Shown here piece by piece: positions 2,690 through 56,444 of a stretch of DNA of 64,000 bases. Under the pieces are notes generated by a model that saw only the letters and a list, made by a program, of their open reading frames with translations, made no database searches and had not been told where the DNA came from. Made by a program: the position numbers and the translations under genes. Within the stretch, counting starts at the first letter, position 1; every line of letters begins with the position of its first letter. Origin of the DNA: Candidatus Nanopelagicales bacterium. Its GTDB lineage: Bacteria > Actinomycetota > Actinomycetes > S36-B12. The DNA lies in assembly GCA_044240195.1 (NCBI GenBank), contig JBIHZX010000002.1:3079-67078 (forward strand). The letters run 5' to 3'.

Positions 2690-4222
2690 CTACTCGCAGG
2701 TGGTTGTGGTGCCCGGGGAGATCGTTCCTTCAAGTAAATAGGCGTCGACATGATCAGAAACGCAGTCGTTGCCTTCACGGTAGGCGGTGTGGTTGTAACC
2801 ACCCTTCCACACGACAAGTTCAGCGTTACCCAGTTTTGTTGCCACTTCCTCTGCCCATTGGAGCGGGGTCGCTGGGTCATTTTCGGTGCCGATCAACATG
2901 ATGGGTGTCGAGGTGTTGGCGACAATGTCGACTCTTTGCTGGGTCGCGTAGGGCCAGTCTTTACAGGCGAGGGCACCCCAGCCCAGACTCGCACCGAAAG
3001 TTGGTGCACTGATCGCCAATTGGTTTGCGAAATCACGTACCTCATCAATGTTTTGGGTAACGGGGTAATCAAGACAGGAAACCGCGTAGAAGGCATCGGT
3101 TGAGTTATCGGTATAGCGGCCATCAGGTCCACGACTAATTCGCTGGTCTAGAAGATTTAATAGTGGGTCTGGGTCACCTTGGGTCATCGCTGAAGTTAAC
3201 CCAGAGCGTAAATCGGGAAAATCAAATTCTGGGAAATACAGGTAACTCACAATCGCAAAGGTTGCCAAACTCTGTGTGAGTTCGCGTTGGTTATCCCCCA
3301 TCAAAGGTTGGGAATCAAGGTCTGCAAGAAACTGTTGGATTTGCTGAACCCCCTGATCAACACTTCCCGTGAGCGGGCAGTCACTTTGCTCACGACAGTC
3401 ACTCACGAAGTAGCGCAACAGAACTTCAAATTCCTGCGCTTGCGCCTGGGTTAACTCCAATTGATTCAAATAAGTGGGCAGCACGCCGTCGAGGACCATT
3501 CGGCCAACTCGATCGGGGAACAAAGAAATATAGGTGGTTCCAATCGCTGATCCATAACTCTTCCCCAGTAAGTTCATTACGGGGTCACCAACAAGTGCTC
3601 GTGCAATGTCCATGTCTTTTGCAACTTCAACGGTAGACATGTGGGCAATCAGCGGGTTGTTTTTGTTCTTGCACGCCGCCCCGATAAAGCCGGCGTCAAG
3701 AATGAGGCGACTTTCTTCCAGCTCTGAATCCGGTGATCCATCGGCAGCCATCTGTGCATCAATCTGTTCATCGGTTAAGCAGCGAATTGTGTCGCTTTGA
3801 CCAACCCCGCGCGGATCAACTCCCACAACATCAAATGATTCACGGATTTGATCGCTGACAATGAAATCGGCAGCTTTGGCGTATTCAAATGCACTGCCGC
3901 CGGGGCCACCCGGATTGACAAAGAGTGAACCAATTGATTCCCCTCGGGCCCGCACCTTGGTCATGGCAAGTTCAACCCGATCACCTTTGGGGTCTTGGTA
4001 ATCCAGGGGCACCTCAAATGTCGTGCAGTCAGCATCACCGCAATCACGCCATTCGATTTCCTGGTTGTAAAAGACCTCAAGATCAGGCGCTAGTGAAGAA
4101 GTAGCTTGGGATTCCGGGGCGCTGGGAGCCGACACATTTGCTCCCCCGCAACCGGTAATTAGTGCGGCAGTCAAGGCACCCAGAGCAATTGCACGGATAC
4201 CGACTGGCATTGGTCGGGTCAT
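2690..4222 (-). CDS. secreted alpha/beta hydrolase lipoprotein, tripeptidyl-aminopeptidase (S33, TAP-like) family
   Basis: Signal peptide with lipobox LITGC, nucleophile elbow GKSYGS, and a TAP-like C-terminal region. The start is uncertain (TTG 4252, ATG 4222 or ATG 4210). Confidence 0.8.
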   Translation of the reverse strand: MTRPMPVGIRAIALGALTAALITGCGGANVSAPSAPESQATSSLAPDLEVFYNQEIEWRDCGDADCTTFEVPLDYQDPKGDRVELAMTKVRARGESIGSLFVNPGGPGGSAFEYAKAADFIVSDQIRESFDVVGVDPRGVGQSDTIRCLTDEQIDAQMAADGSPDSELEESRLILDAGFIGAACKNKNNPLIAHMSTVEVAKDMDIARALVGDPVMNLLGKSYGSAIGTTYISLFPDRVGRMVLDGVLPTYLNQLELTQAQAQEFEVLLRYFVSDCREQSDCPLTGSVDQGVQQIQQFLADLDSQPLMGDNQRELTQSLATFAIVSYLYFPEFDFPDLRSGLTSAMTQGDPDPLLNLLDQRISRGPDGRYTDNSTDAFYAVSCLDYPVTQNIDEVRDFANQLAISAPTFGASLGWGALACKDWPYATQQRVDIVANTSTPIMLIGTENDPATPLQWAEEVATKLGNAELVVWKGGYNHTAYREGNDCVSDHVDAYLLEGTISPGTTTTCE

Positions 4223-6810: not shown

Positions 6811-9516
6811 CTAGATGGTGACTTCTTGGCCGGACATTACGTCGGCTGCTGTCGGCTCAGCTTTTTTCGCTACGGCTTTTTTGACCGCTTTCTTTGCCGT
6901 CTTCTTAGCAACTTTCTTCGCGGCCTTCTTGGCTGGTGCCCGCTTGGCAACTTTCTTGGGTGCAGGTCCTTTTGCCCGACGCTCGGCAATCAGATCACTT
7001 GCCCGATCAAGGCCGACACTCATAGGGTCATCGGCAACCCGCAGGGTTGCATTGATTTCACCGTCGGTGACGTAAGCGCCAAATCGCCCTTCTTTGACAA
7101 CAATCAACTTGCCGCTGGACGGGTCAATACCAATTTCCCGTAGTGGTCCGGCCGCTTGACCTCTGCCGCGTCGCACCTTCGGTTGGGAATACAACTGGAG
7201 TGCTTCAGCGAGGGTTACTTCAAAGATTCGATCCTCGTTGTCCAATGATCGAGAGTCTTTACCCTTCATGAGATAGGGACCGTAACGACCATTTTGGGAG
7301 GTGATTTCCTCAGCTGACTCAGGGTCGATACCAACAACTCGTGGCAGGCTCAAAAGTGAAATTGCTTGCTCAAGTGATACATCACTTGGCTTCATGTAAC
7401 TAAACAGTGATGCGGTGCGTGGCTTGGCTGATTTAGGTGAGCCCTCGGGAAGGTTCTCCGTTACGTAGGGTCCGTAACGGCCGGATTTTGCCACGATCAT
7501 GAGTTCGGTATCAGGGTGAAGGCCCAGTTCCCGATCCCCGGAAGGCTCAAGGAGTAACTCTTCGGCCAACTCAGCGGTGAGTTCATCGGGTGCCGTGCTC
7601 AGAGGAATGTTTGCACGTTCTTCACCACGCTCGACATATGCACCGTAACGGCCCACGCGAAGAACTGCGTCAGTTCCCCTGATGGGCATGGTTGCAATTC
7701 CGCGAGCGTCAATTGCTCCAAGATCTTCGGTGAGTGCTTTCACACCGTGGAAATGGCCCGTTGACATTTCCCCACCACGCCAAAATGCATCGAGTTGCTT
7801 GATGCGATTGGTTTTACCCATCGCGATTTCGTCGAGGGCTTCCTCCATGTTGGCGGTGAACTTGTAGTCAACCAATTCACCGAAGTGTTCTTCCAGGAGT
7901 CGGACAACTGCGAGAGCCGTGAAGCTGGGGACCAGTGCTGATCCTTTTTTCCGCACGTATCCGCGGTCAACAATTGTTGACATGATGGATGCATACGTTG
8001 ATGGGCGGCCAATACCAAGTTCTTCGAGCTTGCCCACCAAGGTTGCTTCGGTGAATCGTGCCGGTGGCTTAGTTGTGTGACCCTCAGCCGTGATTTCCTT
8101 CGCGTTGAGTTTTTGTCCTTCACTCAATGCGGGGAGTTGGCGGTCTTCTTCTTTGTCGTCCTCGGAGACGAGCTCGTCAAGGGCGGCCTTGAAGCCGGCA
8201 AAAATAACGACAGTTCCGCTTGCACTAAATTCAGCGTCTTTCCCATTTGCTGCTTGAGCACCAAATTTGATTGTGGTGGTGGCAACCTGCGCATTCACCA
8301 TCTGGCTGGCCACGGTGCGCTTCCAGATAAGTTCATAGAGTAAGAATTCGTCTCCCGAGAGTTCCTTGCTCACTTCACCGGGAGTGCGGAAAGTGTCACC
8401 GGCCGGACGAATTGCTTCATGGGCCTCTTGGGCATTTTTTGACTTGTTAGCCCACACACGCGGAGTCGCTTCAACGTACTCGGGTCCATACAACTCGGCA
8501 GCTTGTTTGCGCGCAGCATTTAATGCTTGAGCGGAAAGGTTGACCGAGTCTGTACGCATATAGGTGATGTAGCCATTTTCATAGAGTCCCTGGGCAACTC
8601 GCATTGTGCGCTGTGAACCCCAACGGAATCGACCTGACGCTTCCTGCTGAATTGTTGAAGTTGTGAATGGTGCCTTTGGCTTGCGTTGTCCTGGCTTTTG
8701 CTCAACGGAGCGAACCGTGTATTCAATACCGGTGAGGGATTCAACGAATGCTTTCGATTCGCTTTCATTAAGAAGCACGGCATCGGTTTTAACTAATTCG
8801 CCCAACTGATTGAAATCAGCACCCGATGCGATTCGCTTGCCATCAATTGATGCGAGCTTGGCTTCGAAATCCCCGGGAGTGAACTTGCCTTTGATATCCC
8901 AGTAGCCGGCAGCGTTGAAAGCCATCCGAATTCGTTCTCGCTCAACAACAAGGCGCACCGCAACGGATTGAACGCGTCCAGCAGAGCGGGCTTCTCGCCC
9001 AATCTTTTTCCAGAGCACCTCAGAGACGGGGTAACCGTAGAGACGGTCAACGATTCTGCGCGTCTCCTGCGCTTCCACCAGATCCATGTCAACGTCGCGG
9101 GTATTGGTAACCGCCTCTTGGATTGCTTCCTTGGTGATCTCGTTGAAGACCATGCGCTTGACGGGCACCTTGGGCTGAAGGACTTCCATGAGGTGCCAGG
9201 AGATTGCTTCGCCCTCGCGGTCCTCGTCCGTTGCTAGTAGGAGTTCATCAGAATTCTTCAGGGCAGCCTTCAGCGCTTTGATCGTTGCTTTTTTGGATTC
9301 ATGAACGATATAGAAAGCCTTGTAACCGTCATCGACGTCAACGGCCAGCTTTGCCCACGGCTTCTTGCGCTCCTCGAGCGGAAGGTCAGATTTTTTGGCA
9401 ACGAGGTCGCGAATATGGCCAACTGATGCAAGAACCTCGTAATTGGGTCCAAGATAGCCGGCAATTTTCTTCGCTTTGGCCGGTGATTCAACAATCACCA
9501 GTGTCTTGCTCGCCAT
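6811..9516 (-). CDS. topA: DNA topoisomerase I (actinobacterial type with Lys-rich tail, no Zn fingers)
   Basis: Toprim LVIVESPAKAKKI, active-site region YITYMRTDS, and a C-terminal AKK repeat tail. ATG at 9516 is preceded by AAAGGA. The track ORF start at 9597 is an upstream extension. Confidence 0.95.
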   Translation of the reverse strand: MASKTLVIVESPAKAKKIAGYLGPNYEVLASVGHIRDLVAKKSDLPLEERKKPWAKLAVDVDDGYKAFYIVHESKKATIKALKAALKNSDELLLATDEDREGEAISWHLMEVLQPKVPVKRMVFNEITKEAIQEAVTNTRDVDMDLVEAQETRRIVDRLYGYPVSEVLWKKIGREARSAGRVQSVAVRLVVERERIRMAFNAAGYWDIKGKFTPGDFEAKLASIDGKRIASGADFNQLGELVKTDAVLLNESESKAFVESLTGIEYTVRSVEQKPGQRKPKAPFTTSTIQQEASGRFRWGSQRTMRVAQGLYENGYITYMRTDSVNLSAQALNAARKQAAELYGPEYVEATPRVWANKSKNAQEAHEAIRPAGDTFRTPGEVSKELSGDEFLLYELIWKRTVASQMVNAQVATTTIKFGAQAANGKDAEFSASGTVVIFAGFKAALDELVSEDDKEEDRQLPALSEGQKLNAKEITAEGHTTKPPARFTEATLVGKLEELGIGRPSTYASIMSTIVDRGYVRKKGSALVPSFTALAVVRLLEEHFGELVDYKFTANMEEALDEIAMGKTNRIKQLDAFWRGGEMSTGHFHGVKALTEDLGAIDARGIATMPIRGTDAVLRVGRYGAYVERGEERANIPLSTAPDELTAELAEELLLEPSGDRELGLHPDTELMIVAKSGRYGPYVTENLPEGSPKSAKPRTASLFSYMKPSDVSLEQAISLLSLPRVVGIDPESAEEITSQNGRYGPYLMKGKDSRSLDNEDRIFEVTLAEALQLYSQPKVRRGRGQAAGPLREIGIDPSSGKLIVVKEGRFGAYVTDGEINATLRVADDPMSVGLDRASDLIAERRAKGPAPKKVAKRAPAKKAAKKVAKKTAKKAVKKAVAKKAEPTAADVMSGQEVTI

Positions 9517-23403: not shown

Positions 23404-24705
23404 GTGGCCAACAACGAGATCCTCTCGCGCCCCAGTCTTGGCGAACGAGGGTGGCTCATTGCCCAATTGCGAAATGAGACGGTCGGTGGCGCAGTCCTAC
23501 TCGTCGCCGCAGTCGTGGCACTGAGTTGGGCGAACTCCCCGTGGGGAGACAGTTATTTCAACATGGTCAACTACACGATCGGACCCGCCTCACTTGGCCT
23601 GGATCTCTCGCTGGGGGTTTGGGCAGCCGACGCCCTGCTCGCAATTTTCTTCTTCGTTGTGGGTTTGGAACTTAAACACGAATTAGTACTGGGTTCACTT
23701 TCCAAACCCGCACAAGCCATTGTCCCTGCCGCCGCTGCAATCGGTGGCATGTTAGTTCCGGCACTTTTTTATGTGATTATCAATGCAACCCTTGTAGACG
23801 GATCGCTCACAGGGTGGGGGATCCCCATGGCAACCGATATCGCATTCGCACTTGCAGTTCTTGCTGTCTTCGGTCGCAAACTTCCTGTTGCATTGCGTGC
23901 ATTTCTTCTCACACTCGCTGTCGTTGACGACCTTGGTGCGATCAGCGTTATTGCAATTTTCTACTCTGACAAATTTGCCTTGGTCTGGTTCGCAGCATTC
24001 TTATTCTCATTACTCGCCTATTGGCTACTACAGAAATATCGGGTTTCATCACCCATTATCTATATTCCGTTAGTGATTCTCGGCTGGTATTTCTGTTACA
24101 AAAGCGGTGTTCACGCAACCATTGCCGGCGTTGCATTCGGCTTCCTCACCCGGGTTCGTTTGGATCCGGGTGAAAGAAAATCACCCGCTGACACGCTGAT
24201 TCACATTATTCATCCCATCAGTGCCGGGATCGCAATTCCCGTCTTTGCCCTCTTTGCCGCCGGCATTGATCTGCGAGCCACCGGAATCATCGAACCTTTG
24301 CAATCTCCGATCGCGATAGGAATCATGGTCGGTTTGGTGGTCGGTAAACCGATTGGCATTGTCGGAATGGCTTGGATAATGGCACGGTTCACCCGCGCCA
24401 GTTTGAGTCCGGGAATTACCTGGCGTGATGTCACGGCGGTGGGTGTTTTGGGTGGAGTTGGTTTCACGGTCGCGCTACTCATAAGTGAATTGGGTTACGC
24501 CGACAATGCGCTCTACCTGGAAAACGCCAAGATCGCGGTGCTGGTTGGATCCCTGATCGCAGCGACAATGGCGGCCTTTACGTTGCTCTCCCGTGGTCGA
24601 GCCTATGCACGGATGGCGGCGATGGAAGAGGTCGAGCAAGATTTTGGCGCAACTGAGAACGTGAATCTGAAGGGGGAGGGCAATTCAAGGCCCGATCCAC
24701 GGTAA
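23404..24705 (+). CDS. nhaA: Na+/H+ antiporter NhaA
   Basis: About 12 TM segments and the conserved AVVDDLGAI (DD) motif. Confidence 0.92.
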   Translation: MANNEILSRPSLGERGWLIAQLRNETVGGAVLLVAAVVALSWANSPWGDSYFNMVNYTIGPASLGLDLSLGVWAADALLAIFFFVVGLELKHELVLGSLSKPAQAIVPAAAAIGGMLVPALFYVIINATLVDGSLTGWGIPMATDIAFALAVLAVFGRKLPVALRAFLLTLAVVDDLGAISVIAIFYSDKFALVWFAAFLFSLLAYWLLQKYRVSSPIIYIPLVILGWYFCYKSGVHATIAGVAFGFLTRVRLDPGERKSPADTLIHIIHPISAGIAIPVFALFAAGIDLRATGIIEPLQSPIAIGIMVGLVVGKPIGIVGMAWIMARFTRASLSPGITWRDVTAVGVLGGVGFTVALLISELGYADNALYLENAKIAVLVGSLIAATMAAFTLLSRGRAYARMAAMEEVEQDFGATENVNLKGEGNSRPDPR

Positions 24706-24730
24706 CCTTCAGGTCGGGAAGGGGAATCAC

Positions 24731-25126
24731 ATGGCGCCGCAACAGAGTTTGAAACAACTGGTCACGAACACAATCGGTGATGGCAAACGTCTCCTCACCG
24801 CGCAAGTGAACTTAACAACCACCGAGCTCTCCCAGACCAGCAAGACAATTGGTCAGATTTCACTCCTAGCGCTCATCGCAGTGTCATTGATCAGCATGGG
24901 CGGAATATTTAGTCTCATCGCAATTGCCTATGCCCTCGTGGCCCTGGGCCTGCCCGTTTGGGCTGGTTTCCTCATTGTTGCCGTGGTTCTCTTTCTCGTA
25001 GCCGCGATCCTGGGAGTTGTGATCAAGGGCAAAGGTAAATCCATCAAGGCACCTACTGTGGCTCGTGAAGAATGGAAGAAAACTTCTGACTCACTCGGAG
25101 CGCTCAGCAATAACTCCCCCATTTAA
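24731..25126 (+). CDS. small membrane protein, phage-holin-family-like (actinobacterial Holin-X type)
   Basis: 131 aa with two adjacent TM helices and a charged C-terminal tail. There are no phage genes nearby. Confidence 0.55.
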   Translation: MAPQQSLKQLVTNTIGDGKRLLTAQVNLTTTELSQTSKTIGQISLLALIAVSLISMGGIFSLIAIAYALVALGLPVWAGFLIVAVVLFLVAAILGVVIKGKGKSIKAPTVAREEWKKTSDSLGALSNNSPI

Positions 25127-47988: not shown

Positions 47989-49758
47989 TTAACCGTTCTC
48001 AATCTCACCAATTGACACGCCACCCAATTCTTTTGCAATCAGGTCAGCGCCGGTTACTTCCTCCGAGGAGGAGTCATCCATTCTGGGAGTGTCATCTTCT
48101 TCGATGTGCGAGGCGACCGAGGCGCCATCGGCGGTTTCTATTGGACCGACTGAACCCATCGCACCAAGGACAACGTCAATCTTCGTGTCAACCTGCAATA
48201 CGTCAAGGATTGCCTGACGTAGGCGTTCCTCATGTCCGCCAGATTTCACGTTGTTGTAGCGGCCCGAGTCCTTGACCCCAACCGCTAACACACCGTCCTC
48301 AAATGACAAAGGCGTTGATTCGGTAAAACCCATCCAGGCGACCCGAGAATATTTCAGTAACGCATCCATGACCGCAGGCCACATGACGGTAAATGACGAA
48401 ACGTTTGTAGTACCGGGATTCGAAGCCGTCTCCGAAGCCATCACCGCTACCGGAGTAGCATCCTCCACAACAACGTCTTTGGGCTTCCCAGGCTTCTTGG
48501 GTGGCGCGGGGACATTTGTTGCAGCCTGTGCGGGTGCAACTACAGGAGTAACGGTAGGAGCTATCACAACCTGTGGAGCAGGTGCACTCACTATTTGGTG
48601 ACTCACGACACCCGTGCGTTCAAGCTGCTCGATCCGAACCCGCAGCCCATCGGTTGAATCATCGGTAGCCGGGAGGAGAAGCTTGGCCATGAGTAGTTCC
48701 AGTTGAAGTCGAGGGGCAGTTGCCCCCTTGATCTCACTCAGTGCACGGTTAACAAGTTCACCAGCGCGCGCTAACTCGGCTGCGCCAATACGCGATGCTT
48801 GCTCCACTTCGGTTGCGATCACGTCTTCCGGTGCATGAATCAATCCACTCTCCGCCGCCCCCGGGATGCTTTGCAAAACAATCAGGTCGCGGATTCTTTC
48901 CAGTAAATCGGTGACAAATCTTCTTGGTTCGTTACCGGATTCAATAACCCGGTCGACAGCGTTGAACAATGCGGCACCGTCACGATCGATGAGGGCGTTG
49001 ACCGTCTCATCAAGCAATGCCGAGTCCGTCATACCCAACTGGAGTACCGCTTCTTGGTAGGTCACCCCATCTGGGCCGCAACCAGAAATTACTTGACCAA
49101 GAATTGACAGTGAGTCGCGAACGCTGCCCGCTCCGGCGCGGGCGATAAGTGCTAGCGCTGCGGGATCAGCAGGGATGTTTTCACTCGCACAAATCTTCGC
49201 CAAATGTTCTTGTAAGATTTTAACGGGGACAAGTCGGAACCCGTAGTTGTGAGTGCGTGAACGAATCGTTGGCAGCACTTTGTCTGCCTCTGTTGTTGCA
49301 AAAATGAAACGCACATGCTCGGGTGGTTCTTCAACCAACTTAAGCAACGCGTTGAAACCAGCCGTTGAAATCATGTGTGCCTCGTCGATTATGTACACCT
49401 TGTACCGCGACTTCGCTGGGCCAAACATTGCGCGTTCCCGCAAATCACGGGTGTCATCAACTCCACCGTGGCTGGCGGCGTCAAGTTCAATAACATCAAT
49501 GGAGCCTGAACCCGTAGCCGAAAGGTCAATGCAACTCTCACAAACACCGCATGGATCAGGGGTTGGCCCCTGCTCGCAGTTCAAGGAGCGGGCCAAAATA
49601 CGTGCGGTTGACGTTTTCCCACACCCACGAGGGCCGGAGAGTAGGTATGCGTGGTGCATCCGATTGTTTTCCAGAGCCCTGCGCAGTGGTCCCGTTACAT
49701 GGTCTTGGCCAACAACTTCACCCAATGTTGCCGGGCGATACGACCGATACAGCGCCAT
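47989..49758 (-). CDS. dnaX: DNA polymerase III gamma/tau subunit
   Basis: MALYRSYRP start, P-loop GPRGCGKTS and Zn module [16 protein letters not shown]. The alternative GTG start at 49803 adds 15 aa. Confidence 0.92.
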
Positions 49759-49879
49759 GTGAGATGTCGTGGCGGGAGACGCCGTTTCGCTCTTTTTTGC
49801 CACCCGACCACTCTACACAGTCACTATGAGTGACATCTTCGCTAACGAATGGCCCTTGTCGCTAATTCCAAATATGTTA

Positions 49880-49980
49880 AGGATGGGGACTCCCCGCGCA
49901 CCTACCAGCGCCCACCTGCCCTTGCTGCCTTCCGGCCCTGGGGGATTCAGCGAGATGACACCGCGCGGGGAGTCAAGGAA
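49880..49980 (-). ncRNA. ffs: signal recognition particle RNA (small 4.5S-type)
   Basis: The minus strand reads ...ccccgcgcggtgtcatctcgctgaatcccccagggccggaaggcagcaagggcagg...ggtgcgcgggg..., containing the conserved domain IV GGAAGGCAGC motif and a long closing helix. The position upstream of dnaX is canonical. The ends are approximate. Confidence 0.8.
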
Positions 49981-50037: not shown

Positions 50038-50122
50038 GGAGGATTCGCCTAGTGGCCTATGGCGCTCGCTTGGAAAGCGGGTTGGGTTAACGCCCTCAGG
50101 GGTTCGAATCCCCTATCCTCCG
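50038..50122 (+). tRNA. tRNA-Ser (anticodon GGA)
   Basis: A manual cloverleaf gives acceptor ggaggat/atcctcc, anticodon loop ttGGAaa, a long variable arm and T-loop ttcgaat. CCA is not encoded. Confidence 0.92.
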
Positions 50123-50133
50123 CTCGAAGGTGG
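50110..50133. repeat. left copy of the 24-nt direct repeat cccctatcctccgctcgaaggtgg (last 13 nt of tRNA-Ser plus 11 nt of flank)
   Basis: A perfect second copy lies at 51177-51200. Shorter copies lie at 52303-52319 and 50189-50203. Confidence 0.9.
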
Positions 50134-50140
50134 GTAATTC

Positions 50141-50203
50141 TCCGTTTATTGGGTAAACGGGGGATTACCCACGATGAAATGGATAAAGCCCCCATCCTCG
50201 GCC
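50141..50203. repeat. degenerate solo copy (U0) of the ~70-bp cassette-end unit
   Basis: It shares ccgtttat, acggg, attaccca, tgaa and gga, plus a degenerate tRNA-end core cccccatcctcggcc. It contains the perfect hairpin ccgttta-ttggg-taaacgg (50142-50160). Confidence 0.6.
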
Positions 50204-50207
50204 AGAT

Positions 50208-51032
50208 TCAACCTTTAACCGAAACTAAAGCTGTGCATCCAATAACTTCCATTGGCCCACTGTCATATCCGCGTTTCTTATCTGCCGCCATAATTGTATT
50301 TAACTCCGCAGTTATTCGACTTTTTGCCGAAGCAGCAATCTTTGTAAATGGGCAGACATGTGTTGGTGGGCCACTGGAATTAATCAATAAACCAAACTCA
50401 ACCAACCCAATTCCTGGGGTGTAACGTTCATCAAAGTCACCAACTTTGGCAATTGGTTGACCCGCTTTTACCTGATCACCTTCTTTTACTTTCACGTCAA
50501 TTACGTGTTCTACTTCCCATATATTGTTCTGATCATTTTTTGCAGCAATCATTATGCTGTAGTCATTTGAATAAAGTTTTGAAATTTTGATTACTGTTCC
50601 AGTCTTAATTGCGAGGACATCCGTACCAAGTGGTGCATACAGCCCCGGTTGTGGGTTGATTGATCCAGAACCAACCGCTCCTTCACCTCGTGGGCCAATG
50701 TCAAAACCAAATGGAACGTAAGTTAATCCTTTACCTTGGCCTGCACCCTTTAAATCGACATCAAGTGGAGCCGTTGCATTAATCGGAAGTGATTCAATTT
50801 CATCACCGCTTGAGTTTGAAGTTGCGGTGGGTCCTTTCCCTCCAGAAACACCCTTATTCCAGATCAATTTACTGCCCGATTTAATGCAGGTAAATTTCTT
50901 TTTTCCGACATAAGCAACCTCGTTCTTAACTTTACATGCTGACCCTGCAATTGGCGCAGAATTTGCCACCAGTGAAATGCCAAATGCTAATAATAATGAC
51001 GTGATTCCAATTGCTGTTAGGGCTTTTCTCAT
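50208..51032 (-). CDS. secreted protein with N-terminal Cys-pair module and degenerate LytM/M23-like domain (cassette gene A)
   Basis: Sec signal peptide (LVANSA). Module CKVKNEVAYVGKKKFTCIKSGSKLIWNKGV. The C-terminal region YAPLGTDVLAIKTGTV ... VEHVIDVKVKEGDQVKAGQPIAKVG resembles the M23 core but has no HxxxD or HxH ligands. Confidence 0.75.
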   Translation of the reverse strand: MRKALTAIGITSLLLAFGISLVANSAPIAGSACKVKNEVAYVGKKKFTCIKSGSKLIWNKGVSGGKGPTATSNSSGDEIESLPINATAPLDVDLKGAGQGKGLTYVPFGFDIGPRGEGAVGSGSINPQPGLYAPLGTDVLAIKTGTVIKISKLYSNDYSIMIAAKNDQNNIWEVEHVIDVKVKEGDQVKAGQPIAKVGDFDERYTPGIGLVEFGLLINSSGPPTHVCPFTKIAASAKSRITAELNTIMAADKKRGYDSGPMEVIGCTALVSVKG

Positions 51033-51038
51033 ACCGAA

Positions 51039-51068
51039 ATATTATTGATGCATATAAACGCATGTCAA
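51039..51068 (-). promoter_or_regulatory. putative sigma-70-type promoter giving a leaderless mRNA for cassette gene A
   Basis: On the minus strand, TTGACA (51068-51063), an 18-nt spacer and TAATAT (51044-51039) are followed by 6 nt and then the ATG at 51032. No Shine-Dalgarno sequence is present. Confidence 0.4.
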
Positions 51069-51117
51069 TGCATTCGGGTTAAATTAAGTTCAACACCAAT
51101 GTGATCAGTGCTAAGTT

Positions 51118-51190
51118 GCCGTTTATGACCCGTTCACCTAAAAAAACGGGAAATTACCCAGGCTGAATAGGAAAAACCCCTATCCTCCGC
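51118..51190. repeat. cassette-end unit U1 (~73 bp), ending in a displaced tRNA-Ser 3' end
   Basis: gccgtttatgaccc...attacccaggctgaataggaaaaacccctatcctccgc. It shares the blocks tttatgaccc, attacccaggctgaa and cccctatcctccgc with U2. Confidence 0.85.
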
Positions 51191-51259
51191 TCGAAGGTGG
51201 CTCTGAATAAATCCTTCACTAAGGTCTCTGACTTGGCGAAGTATGAAACAGTAGGTCTC

Positions 51260-52183
51260 TCAACGACGTTTACAGTAGTCACTGTTTGCATCCCCATTAG
51301 AAAATGGCAGATTTAACACTCTTGCACGATCTGAATCAGAAAAATAGCTTCCCTCGTACCAGCAAACAGAGTAAAGAGAGTATTTAACATCTGCATTTGA
51401 CTTAAAACTTGAATCAAGAACCGGATTCTTTTTACGCAAATCTACTATTCCTAAATCCATGAAAGTGCCAAGGGAATCAGGGGACGCCGGTGGAAGCATG
51501 CCGACTTCAGATGCAATTAATTGGTCTTTCTTGATAAAGATGCCCGACAATAAGCTCTCACGCGAGTCATTTTCAATTGCAGGTGGGATTGTATTTAAAA
51601 TCTTCTTAATTGAATCTGATGGCTCTAATAGATGACCGAGCCGAAGCATAATCCCGCATGGGTGAATAATATTGATTGTAAATTGATAATTTCCTTCAGA
51701 AATATACTGGGCAGCAGCAACAATCTCACCATCAAAAGGTGCTTTAATAGAGATCCCCTTTACAACTCCTCCAAATTCAGACCAGCGAAGACCGGCATGT
51801 GGTTTGTAACTTCCACCTCGGATTTGACCAGGTTGAACAATCGAAAGAACTTTTGAAAAATCTAATAACTCCCCGGTTGGAATCAATGGGGATGGACATT
51901 GAGGAACACTTCCTTGAGAGATCCACTCTTTACCATCAAAGCGCCAAACAACTGGAGCTTTATTTGAAGTAGAGGCAGGGGCTGGCTTTGTAATCCGCAC
52001 GCCCTTGCTCCAAGTTAATTTGTTTCCAGATTTAACACACTTATATTTGAACCCTGAGTCAACAACTGTGTTACCTAGTTTCTTGCATTCTCCTCCTGCT
52101 TTGACAGCTGCGATTGCGCTAGGCCATAAGAGAGAGAGCACCAAAGAAGCGAGAACGATAGAAACAAAATGGGCTCGCTTCAT
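51260..52183 (-). CDS. secreted paralogue with the same N-terminal Cys-pair module and a degenerate LytM/M23-like domain (cassette gene B)
   Basis: ATG at 52183 gives the signal peptide MKRAHFVSIVLASLVLSLLWPSAIA. Module CKKLGNTVVDSGFKYKCVKSGNKLTWSKGV. The M23-like stretch is IKAPFDGEIV ... FTINIIHPCGIMLRLGHL. The track start at 52252 adds 23 aa. Confidence 0.7.
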   Translation of the reverse strand: MKRAHFVSIVLASLVLSLLWPSAIAAVKAGGECKKLGNTVVDSGFKYKCVKSGNKLTWSKGVRITKPAPASTSNKAPVVWRFDGKEWISQGSVPQCPSPLIPTGELLDFSKVLSIVQPGQIRGGSYKPHAGLRWSEFGGVVKGISIKAPFDGEIVAAAQYISEGNYQFTINIIHPCGIMLRLGHLLEPSDSIKKILNTIPPAIENDSRESLLSGIFIKKDQLIASEVGMLPPASPDSLGTFMDLGIVDLRKKNPVLDSSFKSNADVKYSLYSVCWYEGSYFSDSDRARVLNLPFSNGDANSDYCKRR

Positions 52184-52248
52184 CCCACAACCTTGCATTC
52201 TTGTCTTGAAAAAGTCAAGCAGTCGCAATCGATAATGCGTGCGAGGTT

Positions 52249-52319
52249 GCATTTATGACCCCTTGACCAGAAAACGTGGAATTACCCAGGCTGAAGAGGA
52301 CCAATCCCCTATCCTCCGC
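52249..52319. repeat. cassette-end unit U2 (~71 bp), ending in a displaced tRNA-Ser 3' end
   Basis: gcatttatgacccc...attacccaggctgaagaggaccaatcccctatcctccgc. Confidence 0.85.
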
Positions 52320-52327
52320 CAGAGCAA

Positions 52328-52356
52328 GCCCTCGCCACATCAGGCGAGGGCTTTTT
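52328..52356 (+). terminator. intrinsic terminator oriented for plus-strand transcription
   Basis: 9-bp perfect stem gccctcgcc/ggcgagggc, loop acatca, then TTTTT on the plus strand only. It straddles the stop codon of the minus-strand DUF2142 gene. Confidence 0.6.
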
Positions 52357-53815
52357 CATGCCTCTCAGAACTCCCCATGAATACCCCCGCTACAAACACC
52401 ACACCGGCTAAAACCGCAACGGTGATCGTAACAATTAGTGGAGGGCCATAGGACCAGACAATGTTTACAGAGAAAACGTCATTGACACCATTTGAGCCAT
52501 CTGTCGCAACGGATGAATAGCGGTGCGCATTGACCCAGATGGCCAAACTGGTGGAGATCCAAAGTCCACAAACGATCAGGATCGCGGGAACTCGTTGAAT
52601 TTGAATAGGGGTTTTCACTCGCGCAGGAATCATCACGACGGTAATCAATACTGCGAAGAGCGGTAATAGATATCGAGATTGCACGACTTCACCCACTGCA
52701 ATTCCCTGGGTTTGCATAAAGACCAATGGAAAACCAATAAAGGCGATGAAGGTGACGGTGAGTGCAACCGCTTTGTTCGCCCACACGTGCGAAAGTCCAA
52801 CATAGGCAATTGCTCCGATGACAAGAAGACCGATGACTGAAACGAATGCAGGAAGCACAGTGTCATTCCACCCGAGTGGCCAACCGCCCACTATCCCTTG
52901 CACCAAGTACGGGAACTGAATGAGATTTGTCCAGAGCAAGTTTGAGGTGTGCTCGGAGGTTCCCAGTTGACCGGAAGCTTCGACCGGAGTCACCATGAAA
53001 TACGTCACCGCTCCAGCAACTGCTAACACCACCATCAATAGTGAAGCGGGGACGTGCCCGATGATTCTGCGCCTCCCAGCCAGGGCAAATACAGCAATGG
53101 TGATCACACTAAGAAATGCAGCGGAATCAACTCGTGAAGACATTGCCATAATCGCGCTGATACACATGGCCACCGCGATCACCCATGTGCCCGGGTTCCG
53201 CCATGAACTTCGATACAGCAACGCCAATCCAAACGCAAAGAAATAAAGAGACCCCGCGATTGCCCAGCCACTGGGATTAGTGGATGCCACCAAGAACATG
53301 CCGAGTGGAATTAACGTCACGGCGATTGCCACCAATGTTGCTTGTCGGATTCCACTAGGAACAAAACGAATCAACGCAGCCATCAGTGCTGACACGACGA
53401 GCACGCTAAACAGCCGCATGAGATAAACAGATTTCTCTACATCACTTCCCACAAAAACCGACATAACGCTGTAATAACCGCCCGGATATAACTGTTGAAT
53501 GTTGTTCACTCGTTCGGTCAAGATCATTTCTGTGGAATTCAACTCACTCGCGTTGCATTCACCCGTGACATTAGGTTTGGTCGCAAAACAAAATGCGGAA
53601 TTCACGGCGCCCGCGGCAACAATAAATTTCTGCGGTACCAGGCCCGTGTCCTGGCATGCCTGATCCCGATCGCCTTGGGCGCACCAAATGGAAGCTAAGT
53701 GGTAGTCGTCGTCAGGAGCCGATCCCACCGGAGAAGTCACTGCCCACGCGCAGCCCAATAAAAAAAAGGAAATAGGAAGCCACACCCACTTCCAAGTTAA
53801 CAGTAGGTGGGCCAC
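52340..53815 (-). CDS. DUF2142-like polytopic membrane protein (putative GT-C-type glycosyltransferase)
   Basis: About 12 TM segments and the N-terminal loop motif SPVGSAPDDDYHLASIWC typical of DUF2142. GTG start at 53815. Confidence 0.75.
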   Translation of the reverse strand: MAHLLLTWKWVWLPISFFLLGCAWAVTSPVGSAPDDDYHLASIWCAQGDRDQACQDTGLVPQKFIVAAGAVNSAFCFATKPNVTGECNASELNSTEMILTERVNNIQQLYPGGYYSVMSVFVGSDVEKSVYLMRLFSVLVVSALMAALIRFVPSGIRQATLVAIAVTLIPLGMFLVASTNPSGWAIAGSLYFFAFGLALLYRSSWRNPGTWVIAVAMCISAIMAMSSRVDSAAFLSVITIAVFALAGRRRIIGHVPASLLMVVLAVAGAVTYFMVTPVEASGQLGTSEHTSNLLWTNLIQFPYLVQGIVGGWPLGWNDTVLPAFVSVIGLLVIGAIAYVGLSHVWANKAVALTVTFIAFIGFPLVFMQTQGIAVGEVVQSRYLLPLFAVLITVVMIPARVKTPIQIQRVPAILIVCGLWISTSLAIWVNAHRYSSVATDGSNGVNDVFSVNIVWSYGPPLIVTITVAVLAGVVFVAGVFMGSSERHEKALA

Positions 53816-54581: not shown

Positions 54582-56444
54582 TCATTCGATTGCGTCAGGA
54601 TCTACAGGATCATTTCCTTCGGGCTCCTCCTCGCGATTAGCCTCTTCGGAATTCCCGTTATCTGGGTCCGCGCCGGGATCAGAGTCCGCACCAGGATCAC
54701 CACCAGGATCACCACCAGAATCTGGGTCCGCGCCGGGATCAGAGTCCGTACCAGGATCACCACCAGAATCTGGGTCCGCGCCGGGATCAGGTTCCGCACC
54801 GGATTCAGAGTCCGCGCTATTTTCATTTCCGCTGCTGTCTACGGCATCGCGCCGATCGGACTCGCGAGCTTCTTCGACGAAGGTCCAATCAACGCTCTCT
54901 GCTTTGACGTCCTCCACTGACACCAGGTAGGACCGCTCAGCCTCGTCATACATGACTTCGGCGTACTCGACCTCTTCAGAGCTGCTATCGAATTCAACGT
55001 CATACTCAAGGGTTCGATCGCCCTCCTCATTGAAAAGTTCAACCAGTGCGTCGCCAACATCGTTGGTCGCCACGGTGAAGTAATCTCCTTCTGTCTCCTC
55101 CAGGTCTATAAAATCGACGCTGTTGAGTCCGTAGGCGACGTTGAGATCGGCCATCGCACCCTCGGGAAGTTGCACCAAGAGCTCAGCAGCCTCATCGACG
55201 GTGAAAGCGGCCCCGGATTCTTGGGAGGTGAGGCCCGAGAGGGTGACTCTCGGTGCGTTATACGCGTCGATCGACATTGTGATGGATGCTGGGTTTGAGT
55301 TATCGCTAACCAATCTCGGCGCTACAGAAAATGCTTCAACAAGATTCTTATCGATTCTTAACGTCGTCCCCTTGCCCGACAGGGTCGATCCAAGGATGGA
55401 ACGCGCAGCGACTCCCGGAGGCAGTTGCTCGGTGAGACTCATCGTGTCGTAATCCACGCCATCGACTGTAATAGTGGCGCCGACACGAGCCTCGGGGTCA
55501 GATGAAGTGAGCATCAATTCGTATTCTCCATCGGCAAGCGCAGCGCGCTTAGAGCCTTTATCAACGAACGACCCTTTAGCCGGAAGTATCCGGCTGTCCA
55601 TCGCAGTGAGTTCGATCGTTCCTTGACCGCCCTGCCAAATGCTGGGCTCTTCGTTGGGGTTCGTCGATGCCGCTTCATAGCTCCACTGCTCACTGCCCCG
55701 GTCGATAAAAATCTGCTGCACTGTGCCCGGATAGTTGTTGTCGTAGACGTCGACCACAATCTGGTCGCCCTCCTGCGTCACAGCGATTGGGTTGACCGCG
55801 TGACCACCGTATTCGGAGTAGATTCCCATCGTGTGGCCACTGCCGGACTCGAGCCCGAGGGCTAGTTCCTCCGCGATCTCGGAGGGCTGCAACTTTTGGT
55901 AGGCCGTAAAATTCTCCTGGACGGGCGCGAGCAATTGCGTTGCGTACCACATGGCCATCTGGGCTCTGACCTCACGATTTTCGAAGGCGAGGTCATAAGT
56001 CGAAACCGCGTTGGGATCGAGATCTTCGAGCTGCTCGTCGCCCCGAAAAAGGCGCTCCGCCATGACCGCTATTCCCTCGCAAATGCCCCCCTTCATCGCC
56101 TCATTGACCTGCTTCGCCCACTTCTTCGCGGCCGGGTAGAGCACGCACCCCTTCGACGTCCTCTCCGCACAGACTGCCTTGGCCCCGAAAAGCGCCACCA
56201 TGCTTGTCGCGTCGAGTTCGCCGGTCTTACCCCAGTTCGGAAAGTTGAAGCCGTCGACCGTTGGATCAAACCCGCTGTAAATGCTGAAATCCTGCGAGGA
56301 TGACGTGGAACCCTTTTCCTCGGTCACACCCAATTGCTCTGACTCGGAGGACTCCGGTGTACCTGAACCGCACGCCGACAGAACACAGGCAAGTACGGTG
56401 ATGGGCACGAGCGACATAAATTTACGAGAAGATCGTTCCCACAT
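54582..56444 (-). CDS. large lipoprotein with putative papain-like Cys/His/Asp arrangement and an acidic C-terminal repeat tail
   Basis: Signal peptide with lipobox LSAC. GGICEGIAVMA ... GGHAVNPIAV ... VYDNNYPG occur in Cys-His-Asp/Asn order. The C-terminus has DPGADPDSGGDPG repeats. No family was recognised with certainty. Confidence 0.75.
   Translation of the reverse strand: MWERSSRKFMSLVPITVLACVLSACGSGTPESSESEQLGVTEEKGSTSSSQDFSIYSGFDPTVDGFNFPNWGKTGELDATSMVALFGAKAVCAERTSKGCVLYPAAKKWAKQVNEAMKGGICEGIAVMAERLFRGDEQLEDLDPNAVSTYDLAFENREVRAQMAMWYATQLLAPVQENFTAYQKLQPSEIAEELALGLESGSGHTMGIYSEYGGHAVNPIAVTQEGDQIVVDVYDNNYPGTVQQIFIDRGSEQWSYEAASTNPNEEPSIWQGGQGTIELTAMDSRILPAKGSFVDKGSKRAALADGEYELMLTSSDPEARVGATITVDGVDYDTMSLTEQLPPGVAARSILGSTLSGKGTTLRIDKNLVEAFSVAPRLVSDNSNPASITMSIDAYNAPRVTLSGLTSQESGAAFTVDEAAELLVQLPEGAMADLNVAYGLNSVDFIDLEETEGDYFTVATNDVGDALVELFNEEGDRTLEYDVEFDSSSEEVEYAEVMYDEAERSYLVSVEDVKAESVDWTFVEEARESDRRDAVDSSGNENSADSESGAEPDPGADPDSGGDPGTDSDPGADPDSGGDPGGDPGADSDPGADPDNGNSEEANREEEPEGNDPVDPDAIE
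54661..54810. repeat. in-frame tandem DNA repeat (60-bp unit, 48-bp unit, partial third unit) inside the lipoprotein gene
   Basis: tctgggtccgcgccgggatcagagtccg(c/t)accaggatcaccaccag... starts at 54661, 54721 and 54769. The first unit has an extra 12-bp gatcaccaccag. Confidence 0.9.

Follow-up and report, generated by a model that had tools for sequence, protein, structure and literature searches.

The segment 50124-52319 of the 64-kb window described here (the window being the whole analysed stretch of 64,000 nucleotides from a Candidatus Nanopelagicales genome, contig JBIHZX010000002.1) is probably a tandem array of integrase-less cassettes flanked by attachment (att) sites and formed by serial site-specific integration at the tRNA-Ser(GGA) gene, with the arm of about 85 nt at the right end of each cassette being the attP/attR arm of 8-10 kb elements widespread in freshwater Nanopelagicales. 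The array is an additive island akin to the cis-mobilizable elements (CIMEs); it is neither a new element class nor dedicated to wall-binding proteins. An earlier interpretation made from the letters of the window alone (the sequence-only reading) saw in it a cassette system for secreted wall-binding proteins that could not be matched to any described class. Neither view was upheld, as the same unit and tRNA gene bound integrase-bearing elements (in L011 and L128; L numbers denote the contigs and genomes compared), CIMEs, tycheposon arrays and additive islands are already known, and the genes adjoining the unit, many of them coding for secreted proteins, fall into 36 unrelated clusters among 93, including HicB-like, Zn-dehydrogenase, Rieske/metallo-beta-lactamase, M9-like peptidase and DuOB proteins.

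The integration target, tRNA-Ser(GGA) (50038-50123, plus strand; ARAGORN, and Rfam with 50.8 bits), constitutes the regenerated attL. Its last 14 nt, CCCCTATCCTCCGC (50110-50123), are followed by element DNA (TCG...). Exact copies of them stand at 51177 and 52306 and a copy with two mismatches at 50189, which gives four matches in the window against 0.40 expected, a number reached in none of 100 shuffles. The 24-mer 50110-50133 is identical to 51177-51200 (96% identity across 27 nt for 50107-50133 and 51174-51200), and a 17-nt copy of the tRNA 3' end is found at 52303-52319. Every displaced copy is the end of a shared unit, and a single minus-strand open reading frame (ORF) lies between consecutive units (50208-51032 and 51260-52183/52252). 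The units have in common the arm AAACGGGRAATTACCCAGGCTGAA, located at 50155, 51144, and 52272 and nowhere else in the 64 kb (0.00 expected), while the block TTTATGACCC (repeat family D4) is common to U1 and U2. These repeats, the shared blocks, and the one-gene spacing had all been described correctly in the sequence-only reading.

U1 (51108-51190, plus strand; arm identity to the family consensus 90%) closes with a displaced tRNA 3' copy of the host type, with the core at 51177-51190, and U2 (52237-52319, plus strand; arm 84% identical to the consensus, 91% in L007; hairpin degraded) terminates in the original host tRNA 3' end, with the core at 52306-52319. Both thus combine host-type cores with element-type arms. 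U0 (50154-50203, plus strand) is a decayed unit, with an arm 67% identical to the consensus and a core, CCCCCATCCTCGGCC, that fits the version of low-GC Nanopelagicales (CCCTCATCC) and not that of the host; the low-GC core context in L007, L044, and L132 reads CCCTCATCCTCGGCC, and the U0 core of the window is mutated further than theirs. Directly behind the tRNA, at 50124-50152 (plus strand), lies a left-arm (P'-like) sequence, TCGAAGGTGGGTAATTCTCCGTTTA, an inverted copy of the unit arm, homologous to ..GAACGTGGGTAATCCCCC.. found directly 3' of the tRNA in the integrase element L011 and at about 14 other loci. Its first 10 nt (TCGAAGGTGG) are found again after the U1 core, where, followed by CTCTGAATAAATCC..., they form the left end of cassette 2 (51191-51259, plus strand). 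The stretch 50130-50148 is the reverse complement of the U0 arm (50154-50172), and also of the U1 and U2 arms, in a 19-bp inverted repeat (I2-I4) that the sequence-only reading had overlooked. U0 and 50130-50148 form a 19-bp hairpin, as if an element had lost everything but its two arms.

The insertion is evident from empty sites. In the relatives L001 and L005, with dnaX 90-91% identical to that of the window, the tRNA reads ...CCTCCGCCAGAGCAAGCCCTCG and is directly followed by CAGAGCAAGCCCTCG, which in the window follows the third core copy, at 52320, and opens the native chromosomal flank (52320-52356, plus strand) with its hairpin at 52326-52353 (inverted repeat I15). The flank behind the tRNA at the empty sites being the flank behind the third core, 50124-52319 (2.2 kb) is inserted DNA, with which U2 arrived. 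The tRNA at the empty sites encodes its CCA (CCGCCAG; L001 8391-8404), and that of the window does not (CCGCTCG; 50110-50126); the loss fits a replacement of the tRNA 3' end by element DNA, and the tRNA-Ser(GGA) of the window would depend on a CCA-adding enzyme. Moreover, the array is compositionally foreign, with a G+C content of 0.40-0.45 over 50200-52199 compared with 0.50-0.58 in the flanks, and a mean of 0.427 inside versus 0.537 outside. The proposal of inserted, tandem, AT-rich units sharing an attachment arm at the tRNA 3' end is thereby supported.

A degenerate DNA pattern comprising arm and core detected the unit in at least 120 freshwater metagenome contigs. The consensus runs ..GCTAARTTGCCTTTTATGACCCGTTTACCTAAAAAACGGGGAATTACCCAGGTTGAAGAGGATAAATCCCTCATCCTCCGC, with complete sequence divergence beyond it. 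In 86 distinct copies the identity to the consensus amounts to 96% over 62 nt including the core, 86% over the next 15 nt, and 53% beyond, and the conserved unit is about 85-90 nt long; the sequence-only reading had identified the unit properly and underestimated its length, at about 70 bp. Units with enough context are located 3' of tRNA-Ser(GGA) near dnaX, or upstream of a minus-strand ORF of about 470-500 amino acids (aa), assigned to the DUF2142 position by its place. About 45 contigs contain both the tRNA gene and the unit, separated mostly by 1.0-1.5 kb with one gene; some of the spans are larger and comprise several genes (4, 6.9, and 8 kb). The unit-adjacent gene is on the minus strand in 63 of 93 cases. 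Metagenome contigs of relatives very often stop close to tRNA-Ser(GGA) or a unit, at a distance of a few hundred bases at most (left ends of L002-L006, and many of L008-L127), as assemblies commonly break where strains differ.

Among the copies with visible context, the metagenome units lie beside tRNA-Ser(GGA), tRNA-Ser(CGA), or the DUF2142 flank. L096, a contig of 3.8 kb, contains two tRNA-Ser(CGA) genes (979-1064 and 3687-3770), which enclose a cargo 2-like cassette and a unit. As the 3' ends of tRNA-Ser(CGA) and tRNA-Ser(GGA) are identical in these low-GC genomes, the elements seem to use the former as a further target. A dispersed repeat of the repetitive extragenic palindrome or miniature inverted-repeat element type was rejected on the grounds that there are just three copies in 64 kb, all of them here, and that the metagenome copies are tied to the tRNA-Ser locus, a link which rests on the window and the metagenome contigs, the whole-genome coverage being inadequate for judging scatter. 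A scan of a genome collection with the pattern SGMTGAA ... CCCYATCCTC, which fits the window-type core and the GGCTGAA variant and misses the main low-GC form of the unit, returned one metagenome-assembled genome, L007. As grounds for abandoning its proposal the sequence-only reading had named relatives all alike and host-like in composition, or a unit scattered through the genome; what was found is empty sites and variant arrays, a composition unlike that of the host, and a unit tied to tRNA-Ser and not scattered. The search for the unit that it recommended yielded further arrays and integrase elements in metagenomes and nothing in viromes.

Other identities of the unit were considered. No Rfam family covers the units, RNAalifold applied to the 86 distinct copies predicts weak structures only, and in the 7-bp hairpin CCCGTTT/AAACGGG one pair covaries (TA to AT, in 7 distinct sequences) and the rest is invariant; the unit was therefore rejected as an RNA gene, no covariance model having been built. 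Folding resembling that of attC was ruled out, the single-stranded unit DNA folding no better than shuffled sequences (z from -1.7 to +0.5). Neither the unit, searched with two DNA patterns, nor the integrase protein has a match in IMG/VR, and there are no phage genes in the array, L011, or L128, on which basis a viral origin, either prophage or phage satellite, was dismissed.

The affiliation of the unit is indicated by two integrase-bearing elements. In L011, the 8 kb between tRNA-Ser and the unit encode a tyrosine integrase (PF00589, E 1.9e-18), a TrwB/TraG-like ATPase, two DUF488 proteins, a DuOB protein, and a DUF2510 protein. L128 comprises a 9.8-kb element starting with the tRNA-Ser core and ending with a variant of the unit, with an integrase 71% identical to that of L011 and with cargo that includes an Eco57I-type restriction-modification gene; in its sister contigs L129 and L130 the integrase gene adjoins a full tRNA-Ser(GGA). 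Since L011 and L128 are bounded by the tRNA-Ser core and the unit, the latter is not a free-standing novelty: it is the attR/attP arm of an integrative element that carries an integrase and an ATPase of the conjugation type. The left end of a cassette of the cargo 2 family comes after the unit in L011, so that an integrase element and a cassette stand in tandem. A homology search with the L011 integrase gave 68 clusters, one of them with 238 members; other members of the family carry GmrSD or type I restriction-modification genes. The integrase of L131 (52% identity) is not located at tRNA-Ser and has no unit, which limits the link between integrase and att site to a closer clade. Upstream of the L011 integrase gene, an ORF of 186 aa (579-1139) starts inside the left att arm (GTGGGTAATCCCCC...); with its weak MraZ/AbrB-like C-terminus, its product could be an excisionase or a regulator. 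Remnants of this ORF are present in L020, L033, L037, L043, L077, L081, and L106; in many integrase-less arrays nothing is left of it but the first 20-85 codons.

The array itself has no recombination or transfer genes and consists of two genes coding for secreted proteins. Integrase, recombinase, and transposase domains are absent from the window ORFs of at least 100 aa in 1-37.5 kb and 53.9-64 kb (Pfam, E<=1e-5), and from the Pfam-annotated genes of L001 corresponding to 37.5-50 kb, where synteny with the window was judged by eye and 37.5-47.4 kb was not itself Pfam-scanned. The L011 integrase used as a tblastn query has no match in the window, and neither int nor tra has left pseudogene fragments in 50124-52319. 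The Pfam scans and the search with the cognate integrase ruled out a hidden integrase, in agreement with the earlier statement that no recombinase is present in cis.

The cassettes behave as modules that have been reused. When the 60 nt after every core copy were clustered, at least 14 left-end clusters proved to follow the tRNA in one set of contigs and a unit in another, the junction being ...CCTCCGC throughout. For cargo 1, the left end immediately follows the tRNA in L099, and a cargo 1 homologue occupies also the second position in L055; for cargo 2, the left end (..GTGG, then CTCTGAATAAATCC) immediately follows tRNA-Ser(CGA) in L096, and diverged versions of it follow tRNA-Ser(GGA) in L126 and the unit of L011. 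As L096, L099, and L126 are low-GC hosts with the other version of the tRNA core, their sharing of the same left boundaries indicates that the integrase-less boundaries of both cassettes are older than the arrival of these cassettes in the lineage of the window, the deletions predating it.

The array has been transferred between lineages recently. In a nucleotide comparison of the window with the lineages of L007, L044, L068, and L074, cargo 1 is 95.5-95.9%, cargo 2 97.1-97.3%, and the U1 spacer 96.5-97.8% identical, as against 87% for the recR-dnaX flank (92% over a partial match in L044) and 85-86% for the DUF2142 flank. Given identities of 95.5-97.8% in the cassettes versus 85-87% in the flanks, the array is younger than the split of the hosts, which it reached separately unless it was exchanged between them. 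The tRNA/SRP segment is 99.6-100% identical between the lineages. L007 (CAMAVT010000002.1) is titled 'Bifidobacterium breve isolate ME-08apr19-199', a name that looks wrong; the contig is collinear with the window (dnaX, recR, signal recognition particle (SRP) RNA, tRNA-Ser, and the same array), and the label of dnaX relatives is Nanopelagicales. A more distant genome of low GC, L137 (GCA_964868435.1), carries this pair of genes too (nucleotide identity 75% and 87%). There (CBBESB010000016.1, ca. 1024-1140) the cargo 1-like gene and the cargo 2-like gene adjoin each other in the order of the window, with no unit in between; either a unit has been lost here or the two genes once made up a two-gene module.

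In the course of events that would account for this structure, cassette 2 (cargo 2 with U2) entered first, displacing the host tRNA 3' end together with the native flank, and a composite block of left arm, U0 relic, cargo 1, and U1 may have entered next, regenerating the tRNA. The low-GC version of the core in U0 suggests that the U0/cargo 1/U1 block took shape in a low-GC host before it was integrated at this site as a composite. The integrase would have come from outside the cassettes, either in trans or from a tandem integrase element that was later excised, a behaviour known from CIMEs. Strand exchange probably took place in the tRNA T loop. The T-arm-like dyad of the unit, GAGGA-TAAAT-CCCTC, adjoins the acceptor 3' strand; in U2 this dyad is a hybrid, with the left half of the element type (GAGGA) and the right half of the host type (CCCCT), to the right of which come the host acceptor strand and the native flank, and U1 is a hybrid likewise. 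Such units, element-type on the left and host-type on the right, fit a crossover in the T loop.

Several observations weigh against serial integration of mobile cassettes. All five array-bearing lineages have the same two-gene arrangement, and for these two cassettes no excised circle, attP junction, or array-length polymorphism was seen. Dozens of cassette-only arrays compare with two distinct integrase elements found, and the integrase was never met in the window's own lineage. Many cassettes have no recognisable left (P') arm, the stop codon of the cargo gene lying 4-40 nt from the core, and an integrase of the lambda type normally needs such an arm. Homologous recombination between units or via the conserved tRNA could explain part of the shuffling. 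Finally, the units of the window are decaying, as the arm identities of U0 and U2 given above indicate, and present-day mobility is doubtful. Among the closest relatives (dnaX 92-100%) no array-length variants were detected; L132 and a contig with a DnaX protein identical to that of the window have the same array start. The drift of the unit arms from the consensus suggests that the array in this genome is probably an immobile, slowly decaying relic contributing two secreted M23-like proteins.

The explanation that best survives beside serial integration assisted by such elements assumes a dedicated integron-like system, in which each gene of 1-1.5 kb circularises with its unit and is captured at the tRNA-Ser core by a trans-acting integrase, the one-sided unit of about 85 nt being a sufficient attP and the 8-10 kb integrase elements acting as helpers. 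It is considered unlikely. It would account for the prevalence of one gene per unit, usually in the same orientation, for the conservation of the unit at 96% over 62 nt across hosts with very different flanks, for the many cassettes whose cargo ends close to the core without a left arm, and for the identical integrase-less boundaries in different host lineages and array positions. However, no circular junction was found, there is no attC-like bulged hairpin and covariation in the hairpin is weak, the multi-gene spans do not conform to single-gene capture, cargo 1 has its own promoter-like site, and the units in the window decay; moreover, about 14 loci retain the left arm together with a truncated 5' piece of the gene next to int and are plain deletion derivatives.

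Those derivatives, the resemblance of U0 to an element shrunk to two arms, and the unit decay would favour a decay in situ, in which full-size integrase elements lost int, tra, and most of the cargo here and the cassettes were never mobile as such. This is highly improbable, given that the integrase-less boundaries of cargo 1 and cargo 2 are shared with the low-GC hosts L096, L099, and L126, that not even fragments of int or tra are left in the array, and that the array is 95-98% identical between lineages with flanks identical in 85-87%. Least probable of all is homologous recombination alone, with the unit as a conserved upstream region of a secreted-protein family spread by duplication and allelic replacement without a site-specific recombinase: the position of the unit 5' of genes on the minus strand, with an N-terminal module common to many of these genes, the near-identical tRNA/SRP segment as a possible homology arm, and the description of Nanopelagicales islands as recombination hot spots (PMC12817590) agree with it, but the unit ends in a tRNA 3' copy and has a T-arm-like dyad, the junctions are exact at the core, with the hybrid U2 passing through its host-type half into the native flank, the unit terminates also integrase elements next to an unrelated gene (DuOB), its neighbours fall into 36 unrelated clusters, and a cargo 2 homologue exists in an ordinary chromosomal context without a unit.

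Serial integration of att-flanked cassettes places the locus among known systems. A regenerated tRNA gene together with a displaced fragment is treated as the standard mark of integrase-mediated island ends in the Islander paper (PMC4383910). Of the features used by Islander, the regenerated tRNA, the displaced 3' copies, and the empty site in relatives are found in the window or its relatives, and an integrase inside the island is found in the related elements L011 and L128 only. CIMEs, modelled on the Streptococcus ICESt1/ICESt3 system, are att-flanked segments without integrase or transfer genes which are carried along by an integrative element next to them. ICEberg 2.0 (PMC6323972) uses the term. 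The segments of the window likewise have as flanks the att sites of the integrase elements L011 and L128, carry no recombination or transfer genes, and retain a left-arm fragment (50124-50152); in both cases att-flanked, integrase-less segments stand in tandem or next to a cognate integrase element, and would move by excision as a composite or with an integrase supplied by another element. Accretion with the cognate integrase element is seen in L011 and not in the window. Unlike CIMEs, the cassettes here are mostly single genes of 1-1.5 kb, a single tRNA site has dozens of alternatives throughout an order, no left arm can be recognised in many of the cassettes, and their mobilisation is putative.

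The closest resemblance in lifestyle is to the additive islands of other streamlined freshwater plankton: fGI-2 of 'Ca. Methylopumilus' is an additive island of 330 bp to 42 kb with the recurring last 20 nt of tRNA-Lys (PMC10872708), and GI2-GI4 of Planktophila are additive, tRNA-flanked islands (PMC12817590). They share with the present locus the variable genes beside a tRNA gene, the tRNA 3' repeats, and the many hypothetical genes, but in the passages considered neither a conserved arm of about 85 nt by each repeat nor a cognate integrase element is described, and the tRNA-Ser(GGA)/dnaX site is not singled out. In the tycheposon islands of Prochlorococcus, tyrosine-recombinase elements integrate at tRNA genes, successive integrations push the older ones inward, and partial tRNA copies between elements, degenerated remnants, and defence or adaptation cargo are found (10.1101/2020.12.28.424599). 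The serial tRNA integrations by tyrosine-recombinase elements, the partial tRNAs, and the remnants are common to both systems; no helicase or primase was seen in L011 or L128. The transfer module of L011-type elements, a TrwB/FtsK-like ATPase, is closer to actinomycete integrative elements than to tycheposons.

Actinomycete integrative and conjugative elements (AICEs) integrate at tRNA 3' ends and have a tyrosine integrase and a single FtsK/TrwB-like ATPase. L011 and L128, actinobacterial elements of 8-10 kb at a tRNA 3' end with the same two proteins, resemble them; unlike in AICEs, no RepSA-type replication, Nudix, or pra gene was recognised in the two, and the cargo of their family is mainly of the defence type (Eco57I restriction-modification, GmrSD, DUF488, DuOB), none of which is present in the window. 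With integron cassettes the locus has in common compact, mostly single-gene modules with one conserved site each, the newest being nearest to the fixed capture site. It differs in having no intI, attI, or Pc, in the use of a tRNA gene as the capture site, in a unit without an attC-like imperfect palindrome, and in at least one cassette with its own promoter-like site. Specific to this locus are the strongly conserved arm, the mostly single-gene modules, and the frequent absence of the left arm, and because of these three the integron-like, trans-mobilised alternative is retained at a low probability.

The locus illustrates how single genes are gained by a freshwater lineage that has a streamlined genome and is largely uncultured: at a single tRNA hot spot, from a lower-GC lineage, and apparently via an integrase family common in lake metagenomes. 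The unit is a practical marker, as one DNA pattern leads to at least 120 variant arrays that can be used in studying gene flow and strain diversity in Nanopelagicales. Cassettes devoid of the left arm raise the question whether the integrase needs a one-sided attP alone; if so, the system would stand between classical integrative elements and integrons. It is a doubtful prospect that Nanopelagicales, the most abundant freshwater bacteria, run a tRNA-anchored, integron-like exchange of cassettes in which a one-sided site of about 85 nt (the unit with its T-arm-like core) suffices for the capture of a single-gene circle of 1-1.5 kb at tRNA-Ser; if true, rare 8-10 kb helpers would provide the integrase for a population-wide shuffling of dozens of alternative genes at one site.

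Cargo gene 1 (50208-51032, minus strand) codes for a protein of 274 aa with a signal peptide, an N-terminal module with a Cys motif, and a Peptidase_M23 (LytM) domain (PF01551, E 3.6e-11). As the metal-ligand motifs HxxxD and HxH are replaced, judging by eye, the LytM domain may be non-catalytic. Between U1 and its start codon, at 51041-51068 (minus strand), there is a promoter-like site, TTGACA-16-AATAAT, with 11 of 12 consensus matches, as a pattern match only. Cargo gene 2 (51260-52183, minus strand; longest ORF to 52252) codes for 307 aa from MKRAHF, with a signal peptide and the same Cys module, and belongs to a family of 110 clusters, all hypothetical. Its C-terminal domain has no Pfam match; the AlphaFold (AF2) model has a predicted local distance difference test score of 91, and the top Foldseek matches are all M23/LytM proteins (LasA, ShyA, Csd1-Csd2, and SpoIIQ), with weak E-values (1.8e-3 and above), probabilities of 0.96-1.0, and low TM-scores, which weakly suggests an M23/LytM-like fold. 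The sequence-only reading regarded the two genes as paralogues. This is true of the N-terminal ca. 110 aa, i.e. the signal peptide and Cys motif, to which the homology is restricted (BLASTP 43% over 46 aa; hhalign probability 99.1, columns 1-110), and not of the C-terminal parts, which are unrelated in sequence and share at most an M23/LytM-like fold. A local tandem duplication of one gene was rejected on account of these C-terminal parts and of the fact that each gene has its own orthologues in other arrays. The homologue of cargo 2 in an ordinary chromosomal context, without any unit, is 64% identical.

To the left of the array lie dnaX (47989-49803) and, between it and tRNA-Ser, the SRP RNA gene (49882-49977). 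By its DnaX protein the window belongs among Nanopelagicales-like freshwater Actinobacteria. The gap between the two (49804-49881) measures just 78 bp in the window; in L001 (8724-9848), L005, L007, and L132 it is occupied by a Peripla_BP_6 gene of about 375-400 aa, which makes this another indel of the locus, situated across the tRNA from the array. The right-hand neighbour of the integration hot spot is the gene of a DUF2142 membrane protein (52340-53815, minus strand; PF09913, E 2e-45), as is the case in L001. There, a gene with LPMO_10, fn3, and CBM_5_12 domains (7093-8331), coding for a secreted oxidase of the chitin-active type, lies between the tRNA-Ser terminator and the DUF2142 gene, with no unit or tRNA repeat beside it. 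Elsewhere in the window, a small ORF at 24671-25123 (plus strand) matches 'Putative Actinobacterial Holin-X' (PF07332, E 2e-15); there are no other phage-like genes nearby, and it is probably an ordinary membrane protein of that family. An ORF of 620 aa at 54582-56444 (minus strand), with a hydrophobic, lipoprotein-like signal at the N-terminus, a very acidic D/P/G-rich C-terminal repeat, and no Pfam match, lies between the GcvH gene and tRNA-Ser(CGA), an interval which in L001 holds a small EthD-like gene only and thus is another variable spot.

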